A DNA stretch of 55,974 nt, counting the filler, from Candidatus Tectimicrobiota bacterium (lineage in GTDB: Bacteria; JACPUC01): assembly GCA_016192455.1 (NCBI GenBank). It is 3 parts of 3 records of this genome, joined end to end, with 100 filler letters (N's around TTAATTAATTAA, not from the genome) between each part and the next. Parts side by side here need not be neighbours in the genome. Positions count along the whole stretch, not along the records: positions 41,441 to 55,974 come from JACPUC010000026.1; 2 more parts are not named here. One strand, written 5' to 3'. This document shows, piece after piece, positions 26,800 through 55,856 of this stretch; the first letter of the stretch is position 1; every line of letters begins with the position of its first letter. A model generated the notes under the pieces. That model did no database searches. It had not been told where the DNA came from and saw only the letters and a list, made by a program, of their open reading frames with translations. Both the position numbers and the translations under genes were made by a program.

Positions 26800-26899
26800 N
26801 NNNNNNNNNNNNNNNNNNNNNNNNNNNNNNNNNNNNNNNNNNNTTAATTAATTAANNNNNNNNNNNNNNNNNNNNNNNNNNNNNNNNNNNNNNNNNNNN
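26800..26899. other. Assembly gap / artificial contig linker
   Basis: N runs flanking TTAATTAATTAA (stops in all six frames). Confidence 0.98.
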
Positions 26900-41340: not shown

Positions 41341-41440
41341 NNNNNNNNNNNNNNNNNNNNNNNNNNNNNNNNNNNNNNNNNNNNTTAATTAATTAANNNN
41401 NNNNNNNNNNNNNNNNNNNNNNNNNNNNNNNNNNNNNNNN
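41341..41440. other. Assembly gap / artificial contig linker
   Basis: N runs flanking TTAATTAATTAA. Confidence 0.98.
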
Positions 41441-42135: not shown

Positions 42136-44343
42136 TTACGCCGGCAGCTTCTCGACGTTGCCCAGCAGTGCCTTGTAGGACGGGAAGCCGCTGAGGGGGT
42201 CGCGGTTCTCCATGTCGGTGAGCTCGTTGACGTTGGCCTCCCGCCAGGCCTTGGGGCCGAGCGGGCCGCCGCCGCCCATGTTGGCGTCGATGACGCCTGG
42301 GCGGATGTCGTCGGTGACCTGGGCCGTGAAGACGACCTTCTTGCGGCGCGGGCTGGTAACGTAGACCCGGTCGCCGGTCTTGATGCCGCGAGCCTGGGCG
42401 TCCTTGCTGTTGATGACCACGCAGGGATCGGGGCGCCGATTCACCAGCCCGGGGATGTTGTGGTGCTGGCTGCGGAAATCCTCGTTCATGTGCGAGCCGC
42501 TGATGAGGACGAGGGGATACTCCTTGGCCAGCGCGGGGTTCGCCAGCGGCCCCTCGGTCGGCTCGGTGTAGACGGGCAAGGGGTCGATGCCGTGCTGGCG
42601 GAAGAGCCGCGAGGAGAACTCGAACTTGCCCGAAGGGGTGCGGAACCCCGGCTTGCCGTCCTTGCGCAGCTCGCCCGTCTCATACTTGCGGTAGCGCTGC
42701 TCCGGCACCGGCAGCGAGACGCCGGTCGCAGAGGCGCGCACCTCCTCGAGGGACACCGTGCTCTCCGAGAAGGCGTACCGCAGCATCTCCTCCTCGGTCT
42801 GCGGCACGAGGTGGCCGAAGCCGAGGCGGTCGGCGATGGCGGCGTAGATAAGGTAATCGTTGCGGGCCTCGCCGATCGGTTCGACGATGCGCTCGCGCAC
42901 TTGCACGTGCTGGGCCACCGTGGCGCGGTAGGGGTAGCGCTGGTAGGAGAGGATCTCGTACATCGTCGTCGCCGGCAGCACAACGTCGGCATACTTGGCG
43001 TCCTCGGTCATGAAGCGATCGATGACCCCCAGGAAGTCGAGCGCCGCCAGGCTGCGACGCCACACGTCGGGGTTGGGGAAGGAGGTGATGAGCGAGGCGC
43101 CGCCGACGAGGAGGCCGCGCACCGGGTAGGGATCGTTGTGCAGGATGGCGCGGGGCATCTCCATGAAGTGGGCGGCGCGGGTGAAGCGGCAGAAGAGCGG
43201 GAAGCGGTCGGCGCCGATGGGCGGCACGTCCTCCGGCGGATCGAAGCGCAGGAAGCGCGTCGTCGGCTGCCCATGCATGCTGTAGACCATGCCGCCGGGG
43301 ACGTCAATCTGACCCAGGAGCGCCCACAGACACATCGCCGAGCGGATGTTCTGCACGCCGCTGTTGGTGTATTCGAGGCCCGTGTAGGAGACCAGCGAGG
43401 CGGCGCGGGCACGGCCCAGGTCGCGCGCCAGGGCGCGGATCGTCGCCGCCGGGATGTCGCAGATGGCCTCGGCGCGTTCCGGACGGAACTGCCGCGCGTA
43501 GTCGCGCAGCTCCGCGAAGCCTTCCGTCCAGTTCTCCACGAAGTCGTGATCGTAGAGGTCCTCCTCGATGAGCACCTGCATGAGGCTGAGGGCCAGGGCG
43601 CCGTCGCTGCCGGGCCGCACCGGAATCCACTGGTCCTCTTGCCTGGCGATCTCCGCCCGGCGCGGGTCGATGAGCACCACCTTGGCGCCGCGCTGCCGCG
43701 CCGCCTCGATCTTGCGCCGCAGGTCGGGCGGCGAGTCGGTGACCGGATTGGCCCCCCAGATGATGATGAGGTCGGAGCGCTGCACATCGGGGAACCAGGC
43801 CATCCAGGGCAGGCCGGTGGTGGCGTAAGGGGCCATGACGCGCAGGGACATGGCGCAGAGCGAGCTGACGCCGCCGGCGTTCGGCGAACCGAGCAGCGCC
43901 AGCAAGCCGATCGACGATGAGGTGAGGGTGCCGGTGGGGGAGAAGAAGTCGCCGATGGAGTGCTCGAAGTTGCCCCGCCCCCCGTAGGCCGCCAGGGCCC
44001 TGCCGCCGTGCTTCTGAGCCACCTGCTTCAGCCCGGCCGCGACGCGATCGAGGGCTTCATCCCAACTGAGGCGCTCGAGCTTCCCCTCGCCCCGCGCTCC
44101 CACGCGCACCATGGGGTAGCGCAGGCGATCCGGAGAGTAGACGATCTCCTTCGAGTACTCGCCGCGCAGGCAGACGATCCCCTTCGGGTGGTCTTTCAGC
44201 GGCGCGATGGAGTCGATCTTGCCGTCGACCAGTTGAATCTCCACTCCGCAGCCCTCGGCGCAGATGCCGCACAGGCCGATCTTCGTCTCTCGGCGCGTCG
44301 CCTGCGATTCCGACGTTGCTGTAGCTTCGAGTATTCCCGCCAT
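42136..44343 (-). CDS. Molybdopterin/tungsten oxidoreductase (acetylene hydratase-like group), substrate unknown
   Basis: CGICAEGC...CLRG, LSWDEALD, SLC (candidate ligand), PGSDGALA, ADVVLPA, GFRTPSGKFE, ANVNELTD...DPLSGFP; no Tat signal. Confidence 0.88.
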   Translation of the reverse strand: MAGILEATATSESQATRRETKIGLCGICAEGCGVEIQLVDGKIDSIAPLKDHPKGIVCLRGEYSKEIVYSPDRLRYPMVRVGARGEGKLERLSWDEALDRVAAGLKQVAQKHGGRALAAYGGRGNFEHSIGDFFSPTGTLTSSSIGLLALLGSPNAGGVSSLCAMSLRVMAPYATTGLPWMAWFPDVQRSDLIIIWGANPVTDSPPDLRRKIEAARQRGAKVVLIDPRRAEIARQEDQWIPVRPGSDGALALSLMQVLIEEDLYDHDFVENWTEGFAELRDYARQFRPERAEAICDIPAATIRALARDLGRARAASLVSYTGLEYTNSGVQNIRSAMCLWALLGQIDVPGGMVYSMHGQPTTRFLRFDPPEDVPPIGADRFPLFCRFTRAAHFMEMPRAILHNDPYPVRGLLVGGASLITSFPNPDVWRRSLAALDFLGVIDRFMTEDAKYADVVLPATTMYEILSYQRYPYRATVAQHVQVRERIVEPIGEARNDYLIYAAIADRLGFGHLVPQTEEEMLRYAFSESTVSLEEVRASATGVSLPVPEQRYRKYETGELRKDGKPGFRTPSGKFEFSSRLFRQHGIDPLPVYTEPTEGPLANPALAKEYPLVLISGSHMNEDFRSQHHNIPGLVNRRPDPCVVINSKDAQARGIKTGDRVYVTSPRRKKVVFTAQVTDDIRPGVIDANMGGGGPLGPKAWREANVNELTDMENRDPLSGFPSYKALLGNVEKLPA

Positions 44344-45115
44344 ACGCACTCCTCTCGGAGATAACGAACAAGCTCCCGGCCTCGCGCAGGTGTGTCAGAC
44401 GCTCTCCGCCCGGAGCCCACCCGCCGCCACCGATGAAAACGTCACACAATCGCCCGGAATAAGCGCTTCCGGCCTGGCGAAGAAATCGCCCTCTGGGAGG
44501 AGGCTGCGGCGGAGAAAAAACATCTCCTGACTCGTGGGAATCGCCCCGCGCGCCAGAGGATGTGAGTTTTTAGGATGACATGAAGCTCGCCGCGGCGCAA
44601 GCCCAACTTCCCGGCCACTGCTGAGGTCCACCCACCTGACGAGGGAAAGAGGCGGCGGCGCTCCCCTGGCATCTCGCCTCGCCTGCTGCCGCCTCTCCCG
44701 TGCCGAGGCGGGCCCCTCCCCGGGCAGCCGCATTGCGCCGCTTTCTGGAGAGCGCCCAGTTCCTTGAAGGAGTGATCCGAGTCCTGCTCATCAGGGACTC
44801 CCTGCCGCGAGGGATCTCTGCCTCCCATCTCTCGACTTCCAGGCGTGACCGCGAAGGCGCGCGGTTTCGCAGCTCGCGGCGGAACGCGCCGGAAGGAGCG
44901 CACCCCTCGCCCGCCAGGTGCGGATTTGCAAGCCGAGCGATGGTTCGCCCGTAGGCTCAAACCGCGCGTCGCGAGCAGGGGCCGCGCGGGGCACGCCACC
45001 GGCCCGCGCCCCGCCGGGGCTGTAACGGAGCGCAGTCAACGGCGGCGGAGGTAGCCGCTGCTCACCCTCCCGCATTCTGTCCAGCCCATGGGCAAGCATG
45101 GGCGCTAATTTTTCC

Positions 45116-45176
45116 TTGACAGATTTTCCAGCCCACCCTAAAGTACCTTTGATCAGTAGATTAAAAAGGTCCTTTA
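45116..45176 (+). promoter_or_regulatory. Sigma70 promoter overlapped by an inverted-repeat operator upstream of the Rrf2 gene
   Basis: TTGACA(45116)-N17-TAAAGT(45139); TAAAGTACCTTT (45139-45150) and AAAGGTCCTTTA (45165-45176) are inverted with one mismatch. Confidence 0.7.
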
Positions 45177-45182
45177 CATCTA

Positions 45183-45635
45183 ATGAAACTGAACCGCGAA
45201 AGCGAGTACGGCATCCGGGCGCTCATCTTCCTGGCTAGGCAGGGGCGGGAGAGGGTGCTGATGGCCAGTACGGTCGCCCAGGAGCAGGATCTCCCGCAGG
45301 GGTTCCTGGCGAAGATTTTCCAGAAACTCACTCGCCATGGCGTGCTGCGATCCTACCGCGGCAAGCAGCGCGGCTATGCCTTGGCCAGGCCGCCAGAGGA
45401 GATTGCTCTGAAGGAGGTCGTGGAAGCCATTGAAGGGCCGGACCTCATGGACCGCTGCATCTTCTGGAGCAACCGCTGCCCTACCTCCACGCCCTGTCTG
45501 CTGCACGAGTGGTACAAGGAGATCAAGCCCCAGTTCGACCAGATGTTGAGCCAGACCACCCTGGCTGCGGTGGTGCAGCAAGAGGCGTCCCTCTCAGCTC
45601 TGCGTCCTGCGATCGAGCCCAAGCAGGCGGGCTGA
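45183..45635 (+). CDS. Rrf2-family transcriptional regulator (Fe-S-binding type)
   Basis: EYGIRAL, FLAKIFQKL, SYRGKQRGYALARPPEEI, EAIEG, C-x6-C-x5-C-x2-H. Confidence 0.93.
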   Translation: MKLNRESEYGIRALIFLARQGRERVLMASTVAQEQDLPQGFLAKIFQKLTRHGVLRSYRGKQRGYALARPPEEIALKEVVEAIEGPDLMDRCIFWSNRCPTSTPCLLHEWYKEIKPQFDQMLSQTTLAAVVQQEASLSALRPAIEPKQAG

Positions 45636-45914: not shown

Positions 45915-47270
45915 ATGAGTGGGAGAAAATTGGTCCATCTCGTGAGCCTCATTGTCATCGCCGTTCTCTTCGTTCCCGGCTGGAGCGCCGGCGTGGCCGA
46001 AGCGCAGGAGCGCCGGCTCGTCTATCGCCCCTACGATGTCGGCGAGGTAGATCACGGCAGCCCCGCGCCGGCGACGCCCGCCGCCATTCAAGCAGGCCAA
46101 CGGCTCTACGGGACGAACTGCTCTCGCTGCCACGGCGTGGAAGGCAAGGGGGACGGCCCCACGGCCTACCTCATGAACCCCAAGCCACGGAACTTCGCCC
46201 AAAGACTCTACAAGCTTCACTCCACCCCAAGTGGTCAGCTTCCCACCGACGCCGACCTCTACCGGACGATCACGCTGGGGATGCCGGGGTCGGGCATGCC
46301 TCCCTGGAAGGGCAAGCTCAGCCAAGAGGAACGCTGGCAGCTCGTGCACTACATCAAAACCCTCTACCCGAAATGGGCAGAGGAGGTGAAACGGGAACCG
46401 CTGACCCCGATCGGCATCCCCAAGCCGATGCCGACCTCGGCGGCAAGCATCCAGAAGGGGAAAGAGTTCTACGCCTCGCTGGAGTGCGCGAAGTGTCATG
46501 GAAAAACCGGCAAGGGCGACGGCCCCAGCGCGAATGAGCTGAAGGACGACTGGGGGGACAAGATCCTCCCCACTGACCTGACCAAACCATGGTTCTTCCG
46601 CGCTGGGTCAAAGCCTGAGGATATCTACCGCGTCCTGGTGGCCGGGGTGCCAGGCAGCCCCATGCCATCCTGGGCAGACCTGCTGCCGCAAAACTCGGAC
46701 CTCTGGCACGTGGCCAACTACGTCCTGTCGCTGGCGGAAGGGCAGCCGCCTACGCCGGTGCTGATCGAGACGTTGAAAGGACCCACCTTGGGCGTGAAGG
46801 CGTTCGAGTCGGCGGCGAAGACCGGCTCGGCGGCCGGCAAACCCGAGGTGGTCTTCGATGTAGTCGCCAGCGGCTGGGAGATGTGGATCATGAAGGACGG
46901 CGCCTACCTGCCGCGCGTCAACGGCCTTGCCCAGGCCGGCCACGAGATGCAGGTGAAAAAGGGGCAGGTGGTGCAGATCAACTTCTGGCCGACGGAGAAC
47001 GGCCTGGGCGCTCCCTATGGCCATGGCTTCTCCATCGAGGGCTACGATGACCGGCTCTTCGGCCTGCAGACCGCGGCAGGCCCGGGGGGCGGCTCGGGGG
47101 CCGCCTACCTCGAGCGTCCCCTAGCCTACCGCTTCATCGCCGACCGGGATGGAGAATTTCCTTTCTACTGCTCCGTGCAGTGCGATCCAGGTCAGAGCGA
47201 CGAGATCAAGAAGCTGACCGGCTTGTGGGGCCACGTTTACATGGGCGGCACCTTCCTGGTGAAGCAGTAG
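45915..47270 (+). CDS. Secreted diheme cytochrome c with a C-terminal cupredoxin (CuA-like) domain
   Basis: Signal peptide; CSRCH and CAKCH; VKKGQVV...HGFSI...FIADRDGEFPFYCSVQC...GHVYMGG; GGAGGAGG RBS. Confidence 0.85.
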   Translation: MSGRKLVHLVSLIVIAVLFVPGWSAGVAEAQERRLVYRPYDVGEVDHGSPAPATPAAIQAGQRLYGTNCSRCHGVEGKGDGPTAYLMNPKPRNFAQRLYKLHSTPSGQLPTDADLYRTITLGMPGSGMPPWKGKLSQEERWQLVHYIKTLYPKWAEEVKREPLTPIGIPKPMPTSAASIQKGKEFYASLECAKCHGKTGKGDGPSANELKDDWGDKILPTDLTKPWFFRAGSKPEDIYRVLVAGVPGSPMPSWADLLPQNSDLWHVANYVLSLAEGQPPTPVLIETLKGPTLGVKAFESAAKTGSAAGKPEVVFDVVASGWEMWIMKDGAYLPRVNGLAQAGHEMQVKKGQVVQINFWPTENGLGAPYGHGFSIEGYDDRLFGLQTAAGPGGGSGAAYLERPLAYRFIADRDGEFPFYCSVQCDPGQSDEIKKLTGLWGHVYMGGTFLVKQ

Positions 47271-47358: not shown

Positions 47359-49227
47359 ATGAGAGGGTATGTGAGATTCTTGCTTGCTGGGCTGATCCTG
47401 GGGATCGCGATCCCCCTTCTCATGGGCGCCGCAAAAGACGAGAACCCGGCGGAGGTGATCTACCACGGCCCCTTCGAGCGCGACGCCTACTACATGTTCT
47501 CGAGTAGCGGCCAGTCCGGGGGAGTATTCGTCATCGGCATCCCCTCGGGGAGGCTGTTCATGGACCTTCCCGTCTTCGAGCCCCGGCAGGCCTATGGGTA
47601 CGCGGGCATCGGCACGCCGGAGCGGGAGATGCTGGAGAAGACCGGCGGCCTCTGGGGAGACACCCACCATCCCCGCTTAAGCCACACCGGCTGGAAACCC
47701 GACGGCAAGTGGCTCTACATCAATGACAAAGCCAGCACGCGGGTGGCGAAGATCGACCTGCGGACCTTCCGCACGGTCCTCATCAAGAAGGCCCCGAACA
47801 CGCAGGTCTGGCACGGCATCGCCCTGGTGCCCGACCGAAACGGCACCACCAAGTACGTCTGCGCCAATGGCGAGTTCGAGGCCCCGATTCCACCACGCCC
47901 GGGGCTGCCGGGCGGCTACTCGGAAAAGCTGATCCCGCCGATCGGTGCCAAGGTTCCCGACGACTGGAAGAGCCCCGTCACCTGTCTGGACGCCGAGACG
48001 CTCGATCCGGTCTTCCAGGTGATCAGCGGCTACGGCAACTTCGATATCATGGATAACTCCCCCTCCGGCCGCTGGCTTCTCTCCAACATGTACAACACCG
48101 AGAAGGGCGCGAATATCGACGAGATGATCAAGGCCCCCGAGGACGTGACGCAGTTCCTCGATGTGTGGAAAGCCGAGGAGGAGCTGAAAGCGGGGAGGTT
48201 CACCCTGGTCAACGGGGTGAAAGTACTGGATGCGCGCCAAAGCCCGGGGCTGATCTACCTTCTCCCCACCCCCAGGAACCCGCACGGGATCCACTGCCAA
48301 CGCCTGGATACCCGCGTGCATGGCGAGAAGTCCCTGGGCAAGGATACAGTCTGCATCTCCGGCGGCAAGCTGGTGCCGCGGGTCTACATCTACGATGTCT
48401 CGGGAGACCGCCCGAAGCTGGTGAGCACCCCCTGGGTCGGCCTGGGTCCCCTGCACGTGCAGTACGACGGGCGGGGGAACTTCTACGTGTCGCTCTTCGT
48501 CGACAGCCAGATCGGCGCCTATAACATCGAGAAAGCGATCAAGTTCCCCAACGATCCGGACAAGTACACCGTCGACAAGATCGACATCCATTACAACGTC
48601 GGTCACCTGAGCACGGTGATGAACTACTCGACCCCGAAGGGGGATTGGCTCATCTCGCAGAACAAAATGACCAAGGGCCTTCCCGGCTTCCTTCCCACGG
48701 GTCCTCTGGAGCCGGAAGTTCAGGAGCTGATCGATATCCGCAAGATCACCGCCGACGGCAAGGGAAAGATGCGGCTCATCTACCAGTTCCCGACGCCGCC
48801 CGAGCCGCACGAGTCCGACTTCGTGGAAGCGGAGAAGCTGGCGCCGTTGGTCTGGACGAAGTACAAGAAGCCATATAATGAAGCGATCAAGTTCGTCGGC
48901 CCGGGCGAGTCGCGGGTGGTGCGCAGCGGGCCGAAGAACGTCGATGTCTACCTGACCGCGGTGCGCAGCCGTTACGGACTGGACGAGGTGCGGGTGAAGC
49001 AGGGGGATACGGTCACCCTCTACCTCTCAAATATCGAACGTCTCCGGGACGTCACCCATGGGTTTGCGCTGCAGGAGTATGGCGTCCATTTCGCCATCGA
49101 CCCGGGCGACACGCAGAAGTTCACCTTCGTGGCGGATAAACCCGGGGTGTACTGGTTCTTCTGCACCTGGTTCTGCAGCGCTCTGCACATGGAGATGCGG
49201 GCCAAGCTGATCGTGGATCCAGCCTAG
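47359..49227 (+). CDS. nosZ: Nitrous oxide reductase, non-Tat (Sec-type leader), divergent
   Basis: Seven CuZ His in order (DTHH, WHG, PHG, PLH, VGH, EPH); CuA site HGF...CTWFCSALHMEM; hydrophobic leader without a twin-Arg motif. Confidence 0.92.
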   Translation: MRGYVRFLLAGLILGIAIPLLMGAAKDENPAEVIYHGPFERDAYYMFSSSGQSGGVFVIGIPSGRLFMDLPVFEPRQAYGYAGIGTPEREMLEKTGGLWGDTHHPRLSHTGWKPDGKWLYINDKASTRVAKIDLRTFRTVLIKKAPNTQVWHGIALVPDRNGTTKYVCANGEFEAPIPPRPGLPGGYSEKLIPPIGAKVPDDWKSPVTCLDAETLDPVFQVISGYGNFDIMDNSPSGRWLLSNMYNTEKGANIDEMIKAPEDVTQFLDVWKAEEELKAGRFTLVNGVKVLDARQSPGLIYLLPTPRNPHGIHCQRLDTRVHGEKSLGKDTVCISGGKLVPRVYIYDVSGDRPKLVSTPWVGLGPLHVQYDGRGNFYVSLFVDSQIGAYNIEKAIKFPNDPDKYTVDKIDIHYNVGHLSTVMNYSTPKGDWLISQNKMTKGLPGFLPTGPLEPEVQELIDIRKITADGKGKMRLIYQFPTPPEPHESDFVEAEKLAPLVWTKYKKPYNEAIKFVGPGESRVVRSGPKNVDVYLTAVRSRYGLDEVRVKQGDTVTLYLSNIERLRDVTHGFALQEYGVHFAIDPGDTQKFTFVADKPGVYWFFCTWFCSALHMEMRAKLIVDPA

Positions 49228-49289: not shown

Positions 49290-49688
49290 GTGCGGCGCCT
49301 GGTGCTTCTTGGGATCGTGGTGATCGCCGTCGGTGGGCTTGCGGGTACCGCGCTGCTGCTTTTCCGCTCGGGCTCGCCGGCGGGGCCGCAATGTCCGTTG
49401 TCGTTCTCTGAGTTCGCGGTGGCCTCGAAGGCGGGGAAAATCCGCGTCAGTGGCCAGGCGGGGTACGCCAATGGCGCTCCCTTCGCCAAGGGCCCGGTGC
49501 TGCTCAATCTGACCTTCGTGATGCCGGGATGCGGCGCCCTCCCCTTGACGGCAACGACGGAAGGGGATGGACGCTTCCTCGTTGATGCCTCGCCGACCGA
49601 TGCCGCCTGCGCGCAGCAGGGCGGCACGGTCACCGCCAGTACGCGCGCCGGCTGTTCCATCGAGGGCATGACGCAGGGAGAGTGGTAG
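49290..49688 (+). CDS. Hypothetical exported/membrane-anchored small beta-rich protein with four Cys
   Basis: GGAG RBS, N-terminal hydrophobic helix, TATTEGDGRF beta motif; stop is 1 nt before the next ATG. Confidence 0.6.
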   Translation: MRRLVLLGIVVIAVGGLAGTALLLFRSGSPAGPQCPLSFSEFAVASKAGKIRVSGQAGYANGAPFAKGPVLLNLTFVMPGCGALPLTATTEGDGRFLVDASPTDAACAQQGGTVTASTRAGCSIEGMTQGEW

Positions 49689-49689
49689 G

Positions 49690-50286
49690 ATGAGAACGCC
49701 CGTTCGGATGGCGAATCTCTTGTGCCTCGGGGCGGCCCTGCTGATCGGCGCTTCCTTCCTCACGCCGCTCTGGTCGCTGACGGCACAGGCCGTTCAGTAC
49801 AAGATGGACTTCCCGCAAGGGCTGAAAGTCTACCTCTACCTCTGGAAGATCGCCGGCGAGATGTATGAGCTCAACCTCATGAACAAGTGGATTGGGGCCC
49901 ATTTCCCGGAGCGCGCCCTTGAGATGATCCTCTTCCCAATCCTCTTTGGGGGGGTGGCCCTTGCCTGCGTCGCCTGCCTCTTTCTCAGCCGCTGGAAGAA
50001 GCGCGCCTTGATGGCGGCGCTCCTCGGCCTGCTCCTGCTTACCCTTGTCGGGCTGGTCAGCCTGCAGGGCCGGCTCTATGCATTCGGGCATGTGCGGGAC
50101 GCCAACCCGCCGATCGTGGTTCCTGATTTCACCGTCCCCATCCTGGGAACGATGCAGCTCTGGAACTGGACCATCAGCACCGCCTTCGGCGTTGGCGCCT
50201 ACATCCTGGCCCTCGCCGCCCTCCTGCTCGCGCTGGCTTACGTGGTCACCGCCAGGGAGGCGCGGAACGAGCGGACGTGGTCATGA
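49690..50286 (+). CDS. nosB: NosB-like membrane protein
   Basis: PLWSLTAQAVQY...PQGL...ELNLMNKWIG, LYAFGH..D.NPPI.VPDF..PILG..QL.NW pattern of the clade II nos membrane protein; four TM helices. Confidence 0.78.
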   Translation: MRTPVRMANLLCLGAALLIGASFLTPLWSLTAQAVQYKMDFPQGLKVYLYLWKIAGEMYELNLMNKWIGAHFPERALEMILFPILFGGVALACVACLFLSRWKKRALMAALLGLLLLTLVGLVSLQGRLYAFGHVRDANPPIVVPDFTVPILGTMQLWNWTISTAFGVGAYILALAALLLALAYVVTAREARNERTWS

Positions 50287-51695
50287 AGAAACCCGTCATC
50301 ATCCTCGGCCTCGTCATCCTCCTCGCCGCTCTCTTCGTGACCGTGGGCCTCTACTTCATTCCCAAGCTGAAAGTGAAAGCGGAGCTGGCGGGGGGGCTGG
50401 GGGAGTTCCTGAAATCCGATGCGGACAAGGTGCGCCGGGCCAGCGACATCTACATCGACATCACCTTCGCCAGCGACGCATTCCTGAAGCGCGTGCGCCT
50501 GCAAGAGTACATCGGCAAGTACCGCTACGGGCAGCCGTTCCTCGTCTCCCTGAACACCCATGCGGGTAATCTCGAGGGCATTGTCAGCCTGGAGGGGAAG
50601 ATTTTCCTGCTCGACGATCATGGCAACCGCTATCCCCACCTGGGGAGCCCCATCATGACGTCCCTGCACCACAACACGTATCTGCTGATCTTCCCCAACG
50701 TCGATCACCAGGGGAAGCCCCTCTTCAGCGCCGACCGGAAACACTTCAGCATCAAGGTGAGCGGCATCCCCCCCATCGAGCAGCGCGAGTTCACCTGGCG
50801 GCTCCCGCTGCAGACCGCCATCCCCGCCGCCACACCCTGGGAGGCCTGGACGCGGCATCTCATGCTGGCCCTGGCCCTCATCGGCGCCCTCACCATCACG
50901 CTCTCCCCCTGCGCCCTGAACGTCAGCGCCTTCTATAGCGCCGTCCTCGCCACCACCCTGGGACGCCCGGACATGGCGGCGATCTCCGACCGGCAGGTGA
51001 AGCGTGAACTGCTGCGCATCCTCATCCCCTTCGCTCTCGGCTTTGTCATCCTGTTTTCCGCCGGCGGCGCCCTCATCGGCCTCACCGGAAGTGTCCTGCG
51101 CAACCCACTCGAGCAGCTTGGCAGCTTCTGGTCGTATATCCGGGTGGGCGCCGGGCTCCTCATGTTCTACCTCGGTTTGAAGCTCATTCTCTTGGCCCTC
51201 GCCAAGAGAGGCGCCGGACGGCTGGCCATGGCAATGGGGCGGCTATGGCGCCGCGGCCTCGCGAAGGCCTTCAGCCTGATTTCCGGAGAGAGGTTACCGG
51301 CCGAGCCGCAATCCTTCCGCGACACCCCCTTTACGCCCCTCTCCTCCCTTCTCATGGGCGTCGCCCTCTCCACGGAGTGCGCCATCTGTCTCGGCACGGG
51401 CATCTTCTTCCCCTTGGCGGTCTATGCCGGAACAACCTCCTGGTACTGGGGCATGGCGGTCCTCGGCGCCTTCTCCGTGGCCCTCGTCATCCCGATGCTC
51501 CTCGTCGCCATGGGCGTGCGTGATCTGCGGCTGACCCTGCCGAAGAAGCTCACAATCATCCGCACGCTCAACATTGCCGCCGGGCTGATCATCGGTTTTG
51601 TGGGCATCGAGTTGATTCGGGACGCTGATCCGCACCGCTTTACCAATCTCATCCTCAACGTCGTCTTCGGTGGAAGCGCCTGGCTATACCGTTAG
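50283..51695 (+). CDS. CcdA/DsbD-like transmembrane thiol-redox protein with an N-terminal extracytoplasmic domain
   Basis: TLSPC in the first core TM helix, FALGFVILF, second Cys site ECAIC; ATGA overlap with nosB. Confidence 0.75.
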   Translation: MKKPVIILGLVILLAALFVTVGLYFIPKLKVKAELAGGLGEFLKSDADKVRRASDIYIDITFASDAFLKRVRLQEYIGKYRYGQPFLVSLNTHAGNLEGIVSLEGKIFLLDDHGNRYPHLGSPIMTSLHHNTYLLIFPNVDHQGKPLFSADRKHFSIKVSGIPPIEQREFTWRLPLQTAIPAATPWEAWTRHLMLALALIGALTITLSPCALNVSAFYSAVLATTLGRPDMAAISDRQVKRELLRILIPFALGFVILFSAGGALIGLTGSVLRNPLEQLGSFWSYIRVGAGLLMFYLGLKLILLALAKRGAGRLAMAMGRLWRRGLAKAFSLISGERLPAEPQSFRDTPFTPLSSLLMGVALSTECAICLGTGIFFPLAVYAGTTSWYWGMAVLGAFSVALVIPMLLVAMGVRDLRLTLPKKLTIIRTLNIAAGLIIGFVGIELIRDADPHRFTNLILNVVFGGSAWLYR

Positions 51696-51719
51696 CGATC
51701 ACCTGGGCAGGAAGGCGCC

Positions 51720-52148
51720 ATGCGCGAAGCCTACAGTGTTGGAGCCAAGGCTACCCAGGTCCAGGAGACCCTCACGGGGTATCGACTGAGCCTGGTGGCG
51801 ACGCTGGCGTGTCTGGCCCTGGCCCTTCTGGCTATGGTGGATTTCCGCCGCGGCTTCCTGTTTACCGGCGCGACAGATTTCGGCCGCTACGTCCTCAGCA
51901 CGCCCTCCTTCCGGTTCAGTCCATGGCACCTCCTGATGCTCGGCATCGGCCTGGCGGGGTTTGTGAGCTCTCTTCGCAGGCTTCAACGCTGCGAGGCGGA
52001 GCTGCGTGGAGAGAAACTGGAGGGGGTGACGCGCTGGCTGGCGGCGGGCCTCTTCGGCTTGCTGGTCGTGGACCTGTTTACCTACCGCGGGGTGCCGACG
52101 GTGCGCGCCGCGTTGGCGGGGATCGCCGCCGGCGCGCTGTTCCTGTAG
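51720..52148 (+). CDS. Hypothetical membrane protein, possibly truncated
   Basis: AGGAAGG RBS, 3-4 hydrophobic segments, same strand as the operon. Confidence 0.6.
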   Translation: MREAYSVGAKATQVQETLTGYRLSLVATLACLALALLAMVDFRRGFLFTGATDFGRYVLSTPSFRFSPWHLLMLGIGLAGFVSSLRRLQRCEAELRGEKLEGVTRWLAAGLFGLLVVDLFTYRGVPTVRAALAGIAAGALFL

Positions 52149-52243
52149 TCCGCCGCTCGCCGGGCTTCCTCTTCAACCGTGAGGTGGATCTTCGCACCTC
52201 CTCGCGGAGAACTCCCCGACCTAGAACCAGAGGATCGCGAGCC

Positions 52244-52822
52244 GTGTATCAGGTCGTGCTGATCTTCCACATTGTCAACGTCGTCCTGATGGCCGCGCCC
52301 TACTACAACCTCGTCGTCGTGAGCGAGCGGAGCAAATTTGGCCCGGCGCACGTGCAGGTGGACCGCTACTTCGAGCAGATCGTCAGGGGTATCCTCTTCC
52401 GCTGCTACTTCATCCAGTGGAGTGTCCTCCTGCTGGGACTTCTCCTCGTCGGCCTGCACAACAACTGGAGCTTCCAGTCGCTGCTCACGCAGTGGCAACT
52501 GCTGATCAAAGAAGCAGCCTGGGTGGCGATCATGGTGGTGCATAACCTCGTCTACTTTGGCATCCAGCCGCGCATCGAGGCGCTGTTGCGGGGGCTCCAG
52601 GGAGAATCTATCCCGCCCGAGATCACCAGCCGTGTCACAACCCTGCGAATCCGCAGGAAACAGGGGGCCGCCGCCTGCTTTTTCTTCGTGCTGGTGGCGG
52701 TGATCATGGGGGTCCAGATCAGCCGGCCGCTTGGCCCCGGAACCACGGTGGCGCTCACCCTCCTCGCCCTCCTCTTCGCCTGGCGGGCGTATCGCAGCGG
52801 TGTGCAGTATGGCTGGGTCTAG
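52244..52822 (+). CDS. Hypothetical integral membrane protein with intramembrane His residues
   Basis: GTG after GAGGA; about five TM helices; IFHIV in TM1 and LLIK...VVH in TM3. Confidence 0.7.
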   Translation: MYQVVLIFHIVNVVLMAAPYYNLVVVSERSKFGPAHVQVDRYFEQIVRGILFRCYFIQWSVLLLGLLLVGLHNNWSFQSLLTQWQLLIKEAAWVAIMVVHNLVYFGIQPRIEALLRGLQGESIPPEITSRVTTLRIRRKQGAAACFFFVLVAVIMGVQISRPLGPGTTVALTLLALLFAWRAYRSGVQYGWV

Positions 52823-53474
52823 GAAGGCGGCAGCCCTTCTCGTTCTGCTCCTCGCCGTTTCACCAAGAGCCGCAGCGGCCCACACACCGGACTGGGTCAG
52901 CCACCTCTTCGAATGGGTCCTGGGAAAGAAGGCCGCCGTCGGCGAGGCTCCTTCTGCCGGCTGGCTCGAACCCGAGCCGGCGCACGACTTCCGGCTGCTG
53001 GATCAGGAGGGCGGCGAGAAGACACTGCGGGACTATCGCGGCAGGGTGGTGGTGATGAATTTCTTCCACGCCACCTGCGGGAACACCTGCGGCAGCATGA
53101 AAGAGCTGAGAATCCTGGCAAGGAGTCTGGGGAAGAAGATGGGCGCCGAGGTGGTCTTCCTCTCCGTGAGCCTCGATGCCGCGGAACACCCCTCCGGGGA
53201 GGCGGGAACCTTTGACCGGCAATGGCGGATGGGCCCACGATGGCAGCTCCTGCACGGTCCGTCCGCGGCCATCGAAGAGCTGGCGAAAGCGTATGGCGTA
53301 TATTTCAAGAAGATCGAATCCGCCGAGGGGAAAAACGCTCGCACTGTCGAGTACAGCGACGTGATCCTCTTTCTCGATCAGCAGGGGAGGCTCCGCAAGC
53401 GGGTGCTGCCGCATCTCCTGCAGCTCAGCGGACGCGAAGATGTCGGGTGGCTGCTCCAGCAAGCTGCCCATTGA
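52809..53474 (+). CDS. SCO/SenC-family protein lacking the conserved His
   Basis: Signal peptide; FRLLDQEG, CGNTC, FLSVSLD, VEYSDVILFLD. Confidence 0.82.
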   Translation: MAGSRKAAALLVLLLAVSPRAAAAHTPDWVSHLFEWVLGKKAAVGEAPSAGWLEPEPAHDFRLLDQEGGEKTLRDYRGRVVVMNFFHATCGNTCGSMKELRILARSLGKKMGAEVVFLSVSLDAAEHPSGEAGTFDRQWRMGPRWQLLHGPSAAIEELAKAYGVYFKKIESAEGKNARTVEYSDVILFLDQQGRLRKRVLPHLLQLSGREDVGWLLQQAAH

Positions 53475-53497
53475 GGATACAGCGTGAGGATACCGAC

Positions 53498-54424
53498 ATG
53501 GCAATAACCAAGTGGCGTTGGTCCAGGAAGGGTGTCGCGCGGCTGGCGGGTGTGCTGGCCTTCTTCGCTGTTGGTCTGGCCGGCGGGGCCATACTCTCGC
53601 AGCGACTGGTGTTCGGCACCAACGGGGGGCCGGTCCCGAAGCTCAGCGAGGTTGCCGCCAGCCCTGAGCAGATCGACCAGCTCAACCCCTCCTCGCTCCC
53701 TCCCATCGGCATCTCCCCCGTGCCGCCCAGGGCGCAGGAGGGTCGGAGCCCGCAAGTGTCCGCCGACCCGGCGCCCACGTCGGCCGCGAACCTGCACGCC
53801 GATGGGGGGCATGCTCAGCCCGCCGACCCCGGCGGCGCAAAGGTGGACAACCTCACCACCATACCCTGGGCTGATCCTTACCCGGCCTCCCCCTTCAGCC
53901 TAACCGACCAGGATGGCAGGCTCGTTGCGCTCAACAGCCTCCAGGGCAGGGTTGTGGTCTTGAGCTTTCTCTACACCCACTGCAAGACCGTCTGTCCCCT
54001 CTTGGCACGGCAGTTGACGCAGCTCCAGCATGATCTCGGCCCCTTGATGAGGAGGGACATCCTCTTCCTGTCGGTCACCATCGACCCGAAGCGCGACACC
54101 CCCGAAGTGCTGAAGCGGTACGGCGAAACGCTCGGCATTGATTTCAGGAGTTGGCGGCTTCTCACCGGCCCGGAGGAGAGGGTTCAGGAGGTTCTGCGGG
54201 CCTATCGCGTCCACGTCGAGGTGGAGAAGGAGCCGCACGGGCCCCAGCAGGGGGAGGGCTACGAGCTTGCCCATGGCGCCCCCATCTACTTTATTGATCA
54301 GTGGGGGCGCGTGCGCAAGCGCACCGCGCCCACCATGCTGCCGCGCCTCGGTCAGCCGGCTCTCGAGTGGTTGGTGAAGCAGGGTGCGAGCGATACGACC
54401 AACGGCAAGGGGGGCCGCCACTAA
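53498..54424 (+). CDS. SCO/SenC-family copper chaperone
   Basis: N-terminal TM helix and Pro-rich linker; FSLTDQDG, YTHCKTVCP, SVTIDPKRDTPE, LAHGAPIYFID. Confidence 0.9.
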   Translation: MAITKWRWSRKGVARLAGVLAFFAVGLAGGAILSQRLVFGTNGGPVPKLSEVAASPEQIDQLNPSSLPPIGISPVPPRAQEGRSPQVSADPAPTSAANLHADGGHAQPADPGGAKVDNLTTIPWADPYPASPFSLTDQDGRLVALNSLQGRVVVLSFLYTHCKTVCPLLARQLTQLQHDLGPLMRRDILFLSVTIDPKRDTPEVLKRYGETLGIDFRSWRLLTGPEERVQEVLRAYRVHVEVEKEPHGPQQGEGYELAHGAPIYFIDQWGRVRKRTAPTMLPRLGQPALEWLVKQGASDTTNGKGGRH

Positions 54425-54672: not shown

Positions 54673-55683
54673 CTAGAAGGCAATCTCTTTCGGCATGTGC
54701 GAGAAGACCGTATCGATGTGCTGTGCGGCTTCCGCGGGCAGCAACCCGAACTCGATGTTCTTCCGCAGGAAGAGCTTGGTGCTCTCCAGGAGCTTGGGGT
54801 TCCAGGCGCTCGGATACATGCGGGGGAGCATCTTGACCATGAGCTGCATCTGCGCCTCGGTCTTGATGCCGAGTATCTCCTTGGCGGCGGCGAACGTCTC
54901 GGCGGGGTGCGCCCTGACAAATCCGAGGGACTCCGCGATGGTCCGCACGAGGCGCTGCGAGCGTTGCGGGTTCTCCTTCACCCAGCCCTCATCCACGCCG
55001 ACGGCCACCGAGGTGAGGAACTCAGCGCCGGTCAGGTCGGTCCAAATCTCACCCAGGTTCGCCAACTCCCGGAACTCGCCGTCCGCAATCTTGCGGATGG
55101 TATTCTGGTCGGACTGGATGACTCCCGCCAGCTCCTTCTTCAAGAGAAGCCCCTGCAGCACCTGCGGAGCCCCGAAAACCAGCTTGAAGTCATTGTCGAT
55201 GTCGATGCCGCGCATCTTCAAGATGAGCTTGGCGATGTTGTAGATGCCGGTGACCTGGGAGAGGGACCCCACCCGCTGACCCTTCAGATCGGCAAAGCTC
55301 TTGGCGGGGGAATCGGCGGGCACCACCACGCTCCAGTGCGAGGTCATGAGCGGGGCGATGATGCGGATCGGGTTATTTCGCGCATTGGCGCGCACGGCCG
55401 CGACGACCCCCAGGATGCCGGCATCCACGTTCTTCTGCACCAGCGCCTGCATGGCCCGGTCCGGGGGAAAGCTCTTCAGATCGAGATCGATGCCGTTCTT
55501 GGCGTCGAACTGCTTGCTTTTCGCGATGCTCGTCACCACGCCGACGACGCTGCCGGTGGTGGCGAAGACGACCTTCTCCGCCGCCGCTGCTGGTTGCGCC
55601 GCTCGCGCCAGGAGCAGCGCACCCATGACCGCTACGACGGCGAGCCTCCCGGTGACGCCCCCAACGCTCCTGCAGGTACCCAT
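54673..55683 (-). CDS. ABC transporter substrate-binding protein (SsuA/NMT1/TauA-like)
   Basis: Signal peptide; [44 protein letters not shown]. Confidence 0.85.
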   Translation of the reverse strand: MGTCRSVGGVTGRLAVVAVMGALLLARAAQPAAAAEKVVFATTGSVVGVVTSIAKSKQFDAKNGIDLDLKSFPPDRAMQALVQKNVDAGILGVVAAVRANARNNPIRIIAPLMTSHWSVVVPADSPAKSFADLKGQRVGSLSQVTGIYNIAKLILKMRGIDIDNDFKLVFGAPQVLQGLLLKKELAGVIQSDQNTIRKIADGEFRELANLGEIWTDLTGAEFLTSVAVGVDEGWVKENPQRSQRLVRTIAESLGFVRAHPAETFAAAKEILGIKTEAQMQLMVKMLPRMYPSAWNPKLLESTKLFLRKNIEFGLLPAEAAQHIDTVFSHMPKEIAF

Positions 55684-55856
55684 GCTCCCTCCCTTGCCAG
55701 ACACCCTGGTCGATACGGTCGAGGCCATTGCGCCTCTCATGCGGCGCATCCGTCCTTGCAAGGAGAACCCTCTTCGAAGCAGCCGTTGCGCTCGCGCTGC
55801 GCCAGCTCTCAGCGCCAGGTTGCCCTCGCAAGGCACGCTGCGAGATATTTGCCGGA

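Follow-up and report, generated by a model that had tools for sequence, protein, structure and literature searches.

The gene considered here occupies positions 45915..47270 (+ strand, ATG start at 45915) of a 55,974-nucleotide stretch of DNA, referred to as the window, from the genome of a Candidatus Tectimicrobiota bacterium (assembly GCA_016192455.1). It encodes a secreted protein of 451 residues (P0001) in which a diheme cytochrome c is joined to a C-terminal CuA-like cupredoxin domain; it stands next to nosZ, and its product is probably a periplasmic heme-heme-copper electron wire that serves NosZ. The architecture, consisting of a signal peptide, two class I heme c domains, and a C-terminal cupredoxin, is close to certain, and a preliminary description of this DNA, which had recognized a diheme cytochrome c fused to a CuA-like domain, is borne out in this respect by the sequence motifs, by matches to Pfam, and by a family profile. 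All coordinates are positions in the window and residue numbers are those of the 451-residue product; N filler separates the parts of the window at 26800-26899 and 41341-41440, and the gene and the nos region are on the third part. The window contains four runs of 44 N; positions 1-26799 belong to contig C25 of the genome, whereas the gene is on contig C31, which ends where the window ends.

The copper domain comprises residues ~308-451 (46836..47267, + strand), and hhalign alignments, an AlphaFold2 (AF2) model, and comparisons with Foldseek and VIA-align indicate its homology with CuA domains, namely those of NosZ and of cytochrome oxidase subunit II (CoxII). When a profile of the domain family (35 rows) was compared by hhalign with a profile of 19 NosZ sequences, the two were aligned over 106 columns with a probability of 98.1% and an E value of 8e-14; GHGF was paired with THGF, YC..QC with YC..FC, and H..M with H.EM, and all five CuA side-chain ligands are thereby aligned. 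In this alignment the invariant His370 (47022..47024, + strand) of the GHGF motif (residues 369-372) is the counterpart of the N-terminal His ligand of CuA, found in the sequence THGF in NosZ, and Cys419-Ser-Val-Gln-Cys423 (47169..47183, + strand), whose cysteines are also invariant, corresponds to the two bridging cysteines of CuA. His440-Val-Tyr-Met443 (47232..47243, + strand) corresponds to the C-terminal His and Met ligands, and in the AF2 model the last β-strand follows it directly. The preliminary reading of this region, with His370, Cys419-x3-Cys423, 16 residues, and then His440-x2-Met443, was recovered in full from the translation, and its statement that all CuA-type ligands are present agrees with the profile-profile alignment, in which the five residues coincide with the ligands of NosZ CuA.

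Alignment over the full length of 32 sequences, drawn from both of the loop classes described below and with 35-70% identity to the query and a mean column identity of 47%, shows that Cys69, Cys72, His73, Met128, Cys191, Cys194, His195, Met250, His370, Cys419, Gln422, Cys423, His440, and Met443 are invariant in 32/32; because these residues are invariant at 35-70% identity, the copper motif is beyond chance. The five copper ligands are kept in 13/13 close relatives, and the conservation of the His/Cys/Met set among homologues, which the preliminary description had named as a check on its reading, extends to 138/140 of the family proteins that cover the site. A relative with a shorter ligand loop, P0016, also matches solved structures of CuA proteins, the best of these being the loop-swapped Thermus CuA domains 6PTT and 6PTY (the loop-engineered 6PTT with an E value of 2.5e-7, NosZ with ~2e-3), and relative to Thermus CuA it has a two-residue insertion located exactly after the second Cys. 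When 401 assorted genomes were searched with P0016 at E values up to 1e-8, nothing outside the window's genome matched except the C-terminal ends of 8 genes; NCBIfam identifies all 8 as NosZ, seven of the Sec type and one of the Tat type. In the AF2 model, the copper domain forms a β-sandwich of 7 strands (pLDDT 73.5), for which Foldseek finds NosZ structures as the best matches (E value 1e-6), followed by three-domain NirK and CoxII, and VIA-align gives Z scores of 9.3-10.8 (about 9-11) with cupredoxin domains, including those of CoxII entries 4W9Z and 8OVC. The fold is that of a cupredoxin, and it is by its sequence that the domain is of the CuA type. In fold, homology, and ligand set it agrees with CuA domains, but the canonical spacing C-x3-C-x3-H-x2-M is replaced by one with x16 between the second Cys and the His, or with x5 in the sister class. 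As judged from these comparisons, the domain most likely binds a Cys-bridged copper center through His370, Cys419, Cys423, His440, and Met443, and on balance we take the predicted site to be binuclear.

The 16-residue extension of the ligand loop, Asp424 to Gly439 (DPGQSDEIKKLTGLWG; 47184..47231, + strand), is apparent from the translation and from the relatives, is conserved among the close relatives as CDPGQxDxxKKxTGLWGH, and is common to all 14 clusters of the long-loop subfamily. In contrast, the canonical C-x3-C-x3-H-x2-M is present in the NosZ encoded in the window (CTWFCSALHMEM), in 8/8 NosZ proteins of other genomes, and in Thermus CuA, so that the difference from canonical spacing pointed out in the preliminary description (x16 as compared with x3) holds against both NosZ and Thermus CuA sequences. 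Two further inserts occur in the domain: one of 19 residues between the first two strands (residues 325-343; 46887..46943, + strand), which is lineage-specific, and the Gly-rich insert AAGPGGGSGAA, noted in the preliminary description and located at residues 387-397 (47073..47105, + strand), which is variable and modeled by AF2 with low confidence. Both are missing from the long-loop relatives P0012-P0014 and from the class with x5 spacing, and their absence from P0012-P0014 indicates that they are younger, lineage-specific additions.

Relatives of the protein fall into two classes that differ in the length of this loop. A word-indexed search with the C-terminal part returned 13 clusters, including the query, with 53-100% identity in that part, and an exhaustive HMMER search of 1.84 billion representatives at E values up to 0.001 returned 11 proteins, of which P0014 has the long loop and most others are proteins of ~390-425 residues, or fragments, in which a diheme part and a cupredoxin are combined with a shorter ligand loop; one further member of this set, P0019 (1293 residues), is an unrelated protein. 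A search with the short-loop protein P0021 found 404 clusters among 440 candidates, most of which have a precomputed match to Pfam Cupredoxin_1; those that are named are "c-type cytochrome" proteins from metagenome-assembled genomes (MAGs) of Acidobacteria, Vicinamibacterales, or Betaproteobacteria. In a census of 143 proteins the spacer was of 5 residues in 124 and of 16 residues in 14, and no other length was found. Two CxxCH motifs accompany the 5-residue spacer in 120 proteins and the 16-residue spacer in 13; 5 are fragments in which the copper site is visible (four x5 and one x16), 2 have lost ligands (P0023 and P0124), 2 are fragments truncated or frameshifted where the copper site lies (P0018 and P0024), and 1 is unrelated (P0019). 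The extra part of P0283, a read-through member of 665 residues, is just an out-of-frame tail. The short-loop sister class, from Acidobacteriota/Vicinamibacterales and other MAGs, has the same three-domain build and the same ligand set, with 35-39% identity overall, but differs from the long-loop class in its 5-residue spacer (STTEL in 89/124), in the absence of the inserts, in reaching the Pfam Cupredoxin_1 cut-off, and in being far larger (404 clusters as compared with 13-14). Most short-loop relatives have an N-terminal signal of the lipoprotein type, in which a Cys follows a short hydrophobic stretch, whereas the signal peptides of the long-loop class are of the ordinary kind; judging from these signals, the short-loop proteins may be tethered to the membrane and the long-loop proteins free.

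It should be noted that several observations weigh against assigning the domain of the window protein to the CuA type. The C-terminal 167 residues alone have no match in Pfam, NCBIfam, or the Protein Data Bank (PDB) even at E values up to 5, the whole protein gives only cytochrome c matches in the same three collections, and a protein atlas search yielded only cupredoxin-type leads with scores of 0.84-0.86, below the significance level; the kinship of this domain with CuA is drawn through the family profile, which is dominated by short-loop relatives. VIA-align rates type-1 and multicopper cupredoxins as highly as CoxII, and the modeled fold alone is not diagnostic of CuA. In all matched solved CuA proteins the second Cys is separated from the His by at most 3 residues, and the 16-residue loop is poorly defined in the models, with block means of pLDDT of 56-65 in the domain model and values <50 for residues 424-431 and 433-438 in the full-length model, in which residues 429-435 form a short helix; at this level of confidence, a proper geometry of the site is at most suggested by the models. 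Finally, P0023 and P0124 have lost ligands although both of their heme motifs are present: in P0023 the first Cys, second His, and Met are all missing, and in P0124 the second His is replaced by Asn. Decay of the sites or sequencing errors may account for these losses.

Such observations give some weight to the possibility that the protein serves NosZ but that its lengthened loop results in a mononuclear or otherwise altered copper site, or in a copper-free docking domain with the hemes carrying out the transfer. We consider this unlikely, although not negligibly so. The loop is non-canonical in every member of the family and has low confidence in AF2, there is no direct family match for the window's domain, its structural matches to the type-1 domains of NirK and multicopper oxidases equal those to CoxII, and P0016 comes close to the Pfam Copper-bind model (20.0 bits, with a cut-off of 21.2). 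However, two Cys, two His, and a Met are invariant in the 32 aligned sequences, whereas a mononuclear type-1 site needs one Cys, and all five residues pair with the CuA ligands of NosZ. The insertion is also confined wholly to the interval between two ligands that, in the model, are fixed beside β-strands, which would fit an excursion that spares the site.

The remainder of the protein is defined more directly by its matches. The open frame at 45915-47270 consists of 451 codons on the + strand, and translation of the opposite strand is interrupted by stops. ATG 45915 is preceded by GGAGGAGG, and the same Met is the first residue of the homologues; an alternative start at GTG 45747 was rejected, since the starts of the homologues and the Shine-Dalgarno sequence favor ATG 45915. 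Residues 1-31 (45915..46007, + strand) read as a signal peptide with a basic n-region, a hydrophobic core, and AEA-Q, of the Sec type and without a lipobox. In the full-length AF2 model (mean pLDDT 74.0, pTM 0.71), the N-terminal helix of residues 4-18 is followed by a disordered stretch and is the only hydrophobic helix, and the order of the domains is heme-heme-copper. The diheme class I cytochrome c module (residues ~47-277; 46053..46745, + strand) was assigned from Pfam and PDB matches: Cytochrome_CBB3 (PF13442, 1.7e-24) and Cytochrom_C (PF00034, 2.1e-23) each match the protein in two stretches, and residues 58-275 match chain B of PDB entry 6H5L with an E value of 2.4e-51. The first heme motif, CSRCH, is at residues 69-73 (46119..46133, + strand), with Met128 (46296-46298, + strand) as the likely sixth ligand, and the second, CAKCH, is at residues 191-195 (46485..46499, + strand), with Met250 (46662-46664, + strand) as the likely sixth ligand; both motifs and both Met residues are invariant in the alignment. 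Two CxxCH motifs, distal Mets, and a secretion signal are the features of a diheme class I c-type cytochrome of the CcoP/Kustc0457 type.

PDB entry 6H5L is a hydroxylamine oxidoreductase (HAO)-type structure from Kuenenia stuttgartiensis, and its chain B is presumably Kustc0457. The HAO-type nitrite reductase Kustc0458 is reported to purify and crystallize as a stable complex with the diheme cytochrome c Kustc0457, which prolongs the heme circuit of Kustc0458 (PMC8042395). A relative of the diheme module is therefore bound to an HAO-type enzyme of Kuenenia, and the module serves elsewhere as a bound electron transfer partner of a nitrogen-oxide reductase. Kustc0457 differs from the window protein, with whose residues 58-275 its diheme module is homologous, in having no cupredoxin domain and in its partner, an octaheme HAO-type enzyme and not NosZ. 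A search of plasmids with the family matched the diheme part alone, in 40 records with 55-56% coverage, and matches to the module on rhizobial replicons are annotated as a cbb3 oxidase subunit or c-type cytochrome.

The assignment of NosZ as the partner comes from the genes that accompany the cytochrome gene. In the window, nosZ (47359..49227, + strand) encodes a protein of 622 residues with a Sec-type N terminus and the CuA motif CTWFCSALHMEM, and this is the presumed electron acceptor. Its ATG at 47359 is separated by 88 nucleotides from the stop codon of the cytochrome gene, there is no terminator-like site in this 88-nucleotide gap, and the ATG is preceded by its own Shine-Dalgarno sequence, GGGGGGAGG. 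The list of open reading frames (ORFs) gives GTG 47302 as the start of nosZ; P0145, which is 98% identical, also has 622 residues. The encoded NosZ is divergent, scoring 451 bits with the Tat-type and 411 bits with the Sec-type NCBIfam model, each with a cut-off of 625, and its relatives consist of ten clusters at 66-98% identity, with the next at <=49%. As the 19 NosZ sequences compared, including this one, all keep the CuA ligands and eight propeller His residues, the predicted acceptor looks functional.

The preliminary description had proposed looking for the same architecture near other nosZ genes, and it was found in three further MAGs, one by gene order and two by accessions. A genome scan gave one locus, L001, and a metagenome scan another, L002, where the gene is alone. 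At L001, in a MAG labeled Methylomirabilales, the cytochrome gene, nosZ, a 132-residue ORF, and the next ORF are in the same order as in the window; the genome is the only species-representative genome with an orthologue, and the neighbor was confirmed as NosZ. The long-loop protein P0013 and the NosZ protein P0151 have consecutive accessions (HXH11281.1 and HXH11280.1) on one contig of 74,164 nucleotides, and the short-loop protein P0082 and the NosZ protein P0238 likewise (MCC7416209.1 and MCC7416208.1) on an Acidobacteria contig of 74,999 nucleotides. P0238 has a lipoprotein-type signal, and its scores with the NCBIfam models, 592 bits (Tat-type) and 527 bits, are below both NosZ cut-offs. 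In three more cases, cytochrome and NosZ clusters have longest contigs of equal size (31269, 9585, and 10979), and at least 5 of the ten close NosZ clusters share contigs or contig sizes with the long-loop cytochrome; the remaining long-loop clusters are on short contigs without a NosZ match and are uninformative either way. The 16-residue class appears from this distribution to track one distinct NosZ clade. Among 251 genomes of Methylomirabilota, the phylum of genome G101, the orthologue was found in G101 only, and nine others gave weak matches (E values of 2e-5 to 3.4e-4) limited to 30-33 residues around the Cys motif.

Encoding together with nosZ, as would be expected of an electron donor to NosZ, is thus observed in the window and at L001 and is indicated elsewhere by accessions and shared contig sizes. 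It should be recognized, on the other side, that the short-loop class is tied to nosZ in one MAG only, with no gene context for it in the 401 assorted genomes, where the outside matches are all NosZ, or in 301 genomes of the phylum of genome G609, and that gene order is an association and does not specify the direction or specificity of electron flow. The preliminary description had called the protein a dedicated heme-heme-Cu donor to NosZ; its position beside nosZ stands, and it is from gene order that the donor role is drawn. With this evidence we are moderately confident that NosZ is the electron acceptor.

A mechanism consistent with these observations can be proposed. The secreted chain, with its Sec signal, two His/Met class I heme domains, and C-terminal copper domain, would be an electron transfer protein with three centers, its cupredoxin domain appearing to share common descent with the CuA domains found in NosZ and in subunit II of cytochrome oxidase and its gene probably being co-transcribed with nosZ. 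Electrons from the membrane respiratory chain would enter the protein, pass from heme to heme to copper, or in the reverse order, and be handed to the CuA center of NosZ for N2O reduction; the 16-residue excursion would bulge away from the site and may shape the surface beside the copper. It is the combination of two His/Met hemes and a Cys-bridged copper on a secreted chain, presumably co-transcribed with NosZ, that suggests an electron wire ending at NosZ CuA.

The protein could instead be a general periplasmic carrier, or belong as a subunit to another respiratory enzyme such as an oxidase, NO reductase, or dehydrogenase, with its adjacency to nosZ reflecting shared regulation. The diheme module is widespread and matches CcoP models, and fusions of cytochrome c with CuA are known from subunit II of caa3 oxidases, one of which (PDB entry 2YEV chain B) is among the weak matches of the protein. 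However, its gene has as neighbors an Rrf2 regulator and nosZ, and not an oxidase subunit I, the transmembrane helices of the subunit II type are absent, and the order of the domains is reversed. In addition, cytochromes of both loop classes are found paired with nosZ, in MAGs labeled as different phyla, and the 16-residue class follows one NosZ clade, so that such a role is distinctly improbable. Two narrower identifications were rejected outright, namely a type-1 (blue) copper protein, because two invariant Cys residues are four apart, the spacer is of 16 residues, and Pfam Copper-bind misses the window's domain, and a caa3 oxidase subunit II, because of the reversed domain order, the absence of membrane helices beyond the signal, and the absence of a subunit I gene nearby; the NCBIfam CoxB and CtaC models have no match to the 451-residue protein.

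Other genes of the region are as follows. The Rrf2-family regulator (45183..45635, + strand), of the iron-sulfur type with three Cys residues (Cys92, Cys99, and Cys105), lies 280 nucleotides upstream of the cytochrome gene; it has comparable scores with the IscR and NsrR models, below their cut-offs, and a promoter-like site (45116-45144) precedes it. A molybdopterin oxidoreductase gene (42136-44349, - strand; Pfam domains Molybdopterin, Molydop_binding, and Fe4S4) is ~1.5 kb upstream of the cytochrome gene and ~0.8 kb upstream of the Rrf2 gene. Downstream of nosZ, the interval 49290-54424 encodes a 132-residue signal-anchored protein, proteins of 198 and 472 residues and a further membrane protein, then a Sco/TlpA-like protein and a Sco. 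The first four have no family match even at E values up to 5, and an impression that the 472-residue membrane protein (50277-51695) is DsbD/CcdA-like found no support in Pfam. The nos region ends ~1.5 kb from the end of the contig and is followed by an unrelated gene on the minus strand (54673-55836). The segment 45915-49227, containing the cytochrome gene and nosZ, is fully contained in four groundwater metagenome runs, all from one study that may be the source of the sequence, and 21-30% of its sampled words occur in runs from two other groundwater studies; there is no RNA run among the sequencing runs listed as containing it.

The first SCO-like protein (52731-53474, + strand) has the motif CGNTC and a Tyr at the position of the copper-ligand His of Bradyrhizobium japonicum ScoI; among solved structures it is closest to a thiol-disulfide oxidoreductase, and in NCBIfam it is matched best by TlpA. 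The second (53495-54424, + strand) is a canonical Sco that aligns with Bacillus subtilis Sco1 and keeps the CxxxC and His; as the two listed ORFs overlap by ~250 nucleotides, it probably starts at a Met near 53495. The preliminary description had suggested that two SCO proteins might be explained by two CuA sites, an idea that has lost force because the first SCO-like protein lacks the ligand His and only the second is canonical, and also because SCO genes, together with "azurin" genes, are described in Luteitalea pratensis and Opitutus terrae as lying upstream of nosZ (PMC13122619). Those "azurin" genes may or may not belong to the short-loop family. A plausible division of labor would have the first protein act as a thiol reductase for the CuA cysteines and the second as a copper-inserting Sco.

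Such genes also bear on whether the protein might itself be a maturation factor, whose CuA-like domain holds or transfers copper, or keeps thiols reduced, for the assembly of NosZ in a cluster without the usual NosD, NosF, NosY, and NosL. In the whole of the window's genome (88% complete) there was no match to Pfam NosD or NosL, and the cluster has a Sco and a Sco/TlpA-like protein. However, two covalent His/Met hemes are a signature of electron transfer, and no copper chaperone is known to carry covalently bound hemes. The copper ligands are those of a redox site buried in the protein, in contrast to the surface motif of a Cu(I) chaperone, and the short-loop class occurs in Acidobacteriota, for which a cultured strain with nosZDFY is described (PMC13122619); that strain may or may not carry the family. 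A role in maturation is therefore regarded as very improbable.

Comparison with known systems places the protein between several established types. The CuA domain of NosZ (PDB entries 3SBP and 1FWX) shares with the window's domain the cupredoxin fold, the HGF sequence, Cys residues four apart, and His-x2-Met before the last strand, but is fused to a seven-bladed propeller instead of two heme c domains, and the residue between the two Cys is Val, Ile, or Thr in the cytochrome family as opposed to Trp, Glu, or Asn in NosZ. The caa3 oxidases fuse a heme c to a CuA domain, so that a heme can feed copper within one chain, and to our knowledge their subunit II is the only well-known natural heme c-CuA fusion. 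Like the window protein, subunit II of the caa3 oxidase in entry 2YEV (chain B) carries a CuA-type cupredoxin and a c-type heme on one polypeptide, but it has one heme, the copper domain first, and membrane helices, whereas the window protein has two hemes and the copper domain last. The known donors to NosZ, which include cytochrome c550/c552, pseudoazurin, NosC cytochromes, and the fused heme domain of clade II, are small and periplasmic, are often encoded near nos clusters, and reduce CuA; unlike the window protein, none of them pairs heme with a CuA-type two-Cys copper site, pseudoazurin being a type-1 protein with one Cys. Clade II nos clusters encode c-type cytochromes, and one review names only these and NosGH as the clade II electron route (PMC13685413). 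PmoD of methane and ammonia oxidizers is described as having a CuA-like center on a small secreted cupredoxin, outside oxidase and NosZ (PMC6189053). That site differs from the one proposed here in lying across a homodimer interface, in being heme-free, and in having no relation to nos clusters, and PmoD gave no sequence match in these searches. A full-text search of the literature found no description of a protein encoded beside nosZ in which a diheme cytochrome is joined to a CuA-type domain.

The electron supply to non-classical NosZ enzymes is poorly known, and the window protein is a probable donor to one of them. If this reading is correct, a donor with its own CuA-type site would be a fourth natural setting for CuA, the others being oxidase, NosZ, and the NO reductase and PmoD cases, and the family would provide two natural variants of the ligand loop (5 and 16 residues as compared with 3) of a kind that has so far been engineered (6PTT and 6PTY). 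Carried further, and held only tentatively, the proposal would be that a free-standing CuA center, with a loop 13 residues beyond that of any characterized CuA protein, ends a two-heme wire and passes electrons from copper pair to copper pair into NosZ, and that the window protein and its x5 relatives constitute an unrecognized, widespread electron entry to NosZ enzymes that score near or below both model cut-offs; the loop CDPGQxDxxKKxTGLWGH would then tune the potential of the site or recognize its own NosZ clade. As a small soluble protein that is easy to express, it lends itself to a direct test of this question. NosZ is reported to be the one enzyme known to remove N2O, and nosZ of the class to which Vicinamibacterales belong is described as among the most abundant in soils (PMC13122619). 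Because the short-loop class is present in MAGs of Vicinamibacterales, the family may matter for the soil N2O sink.

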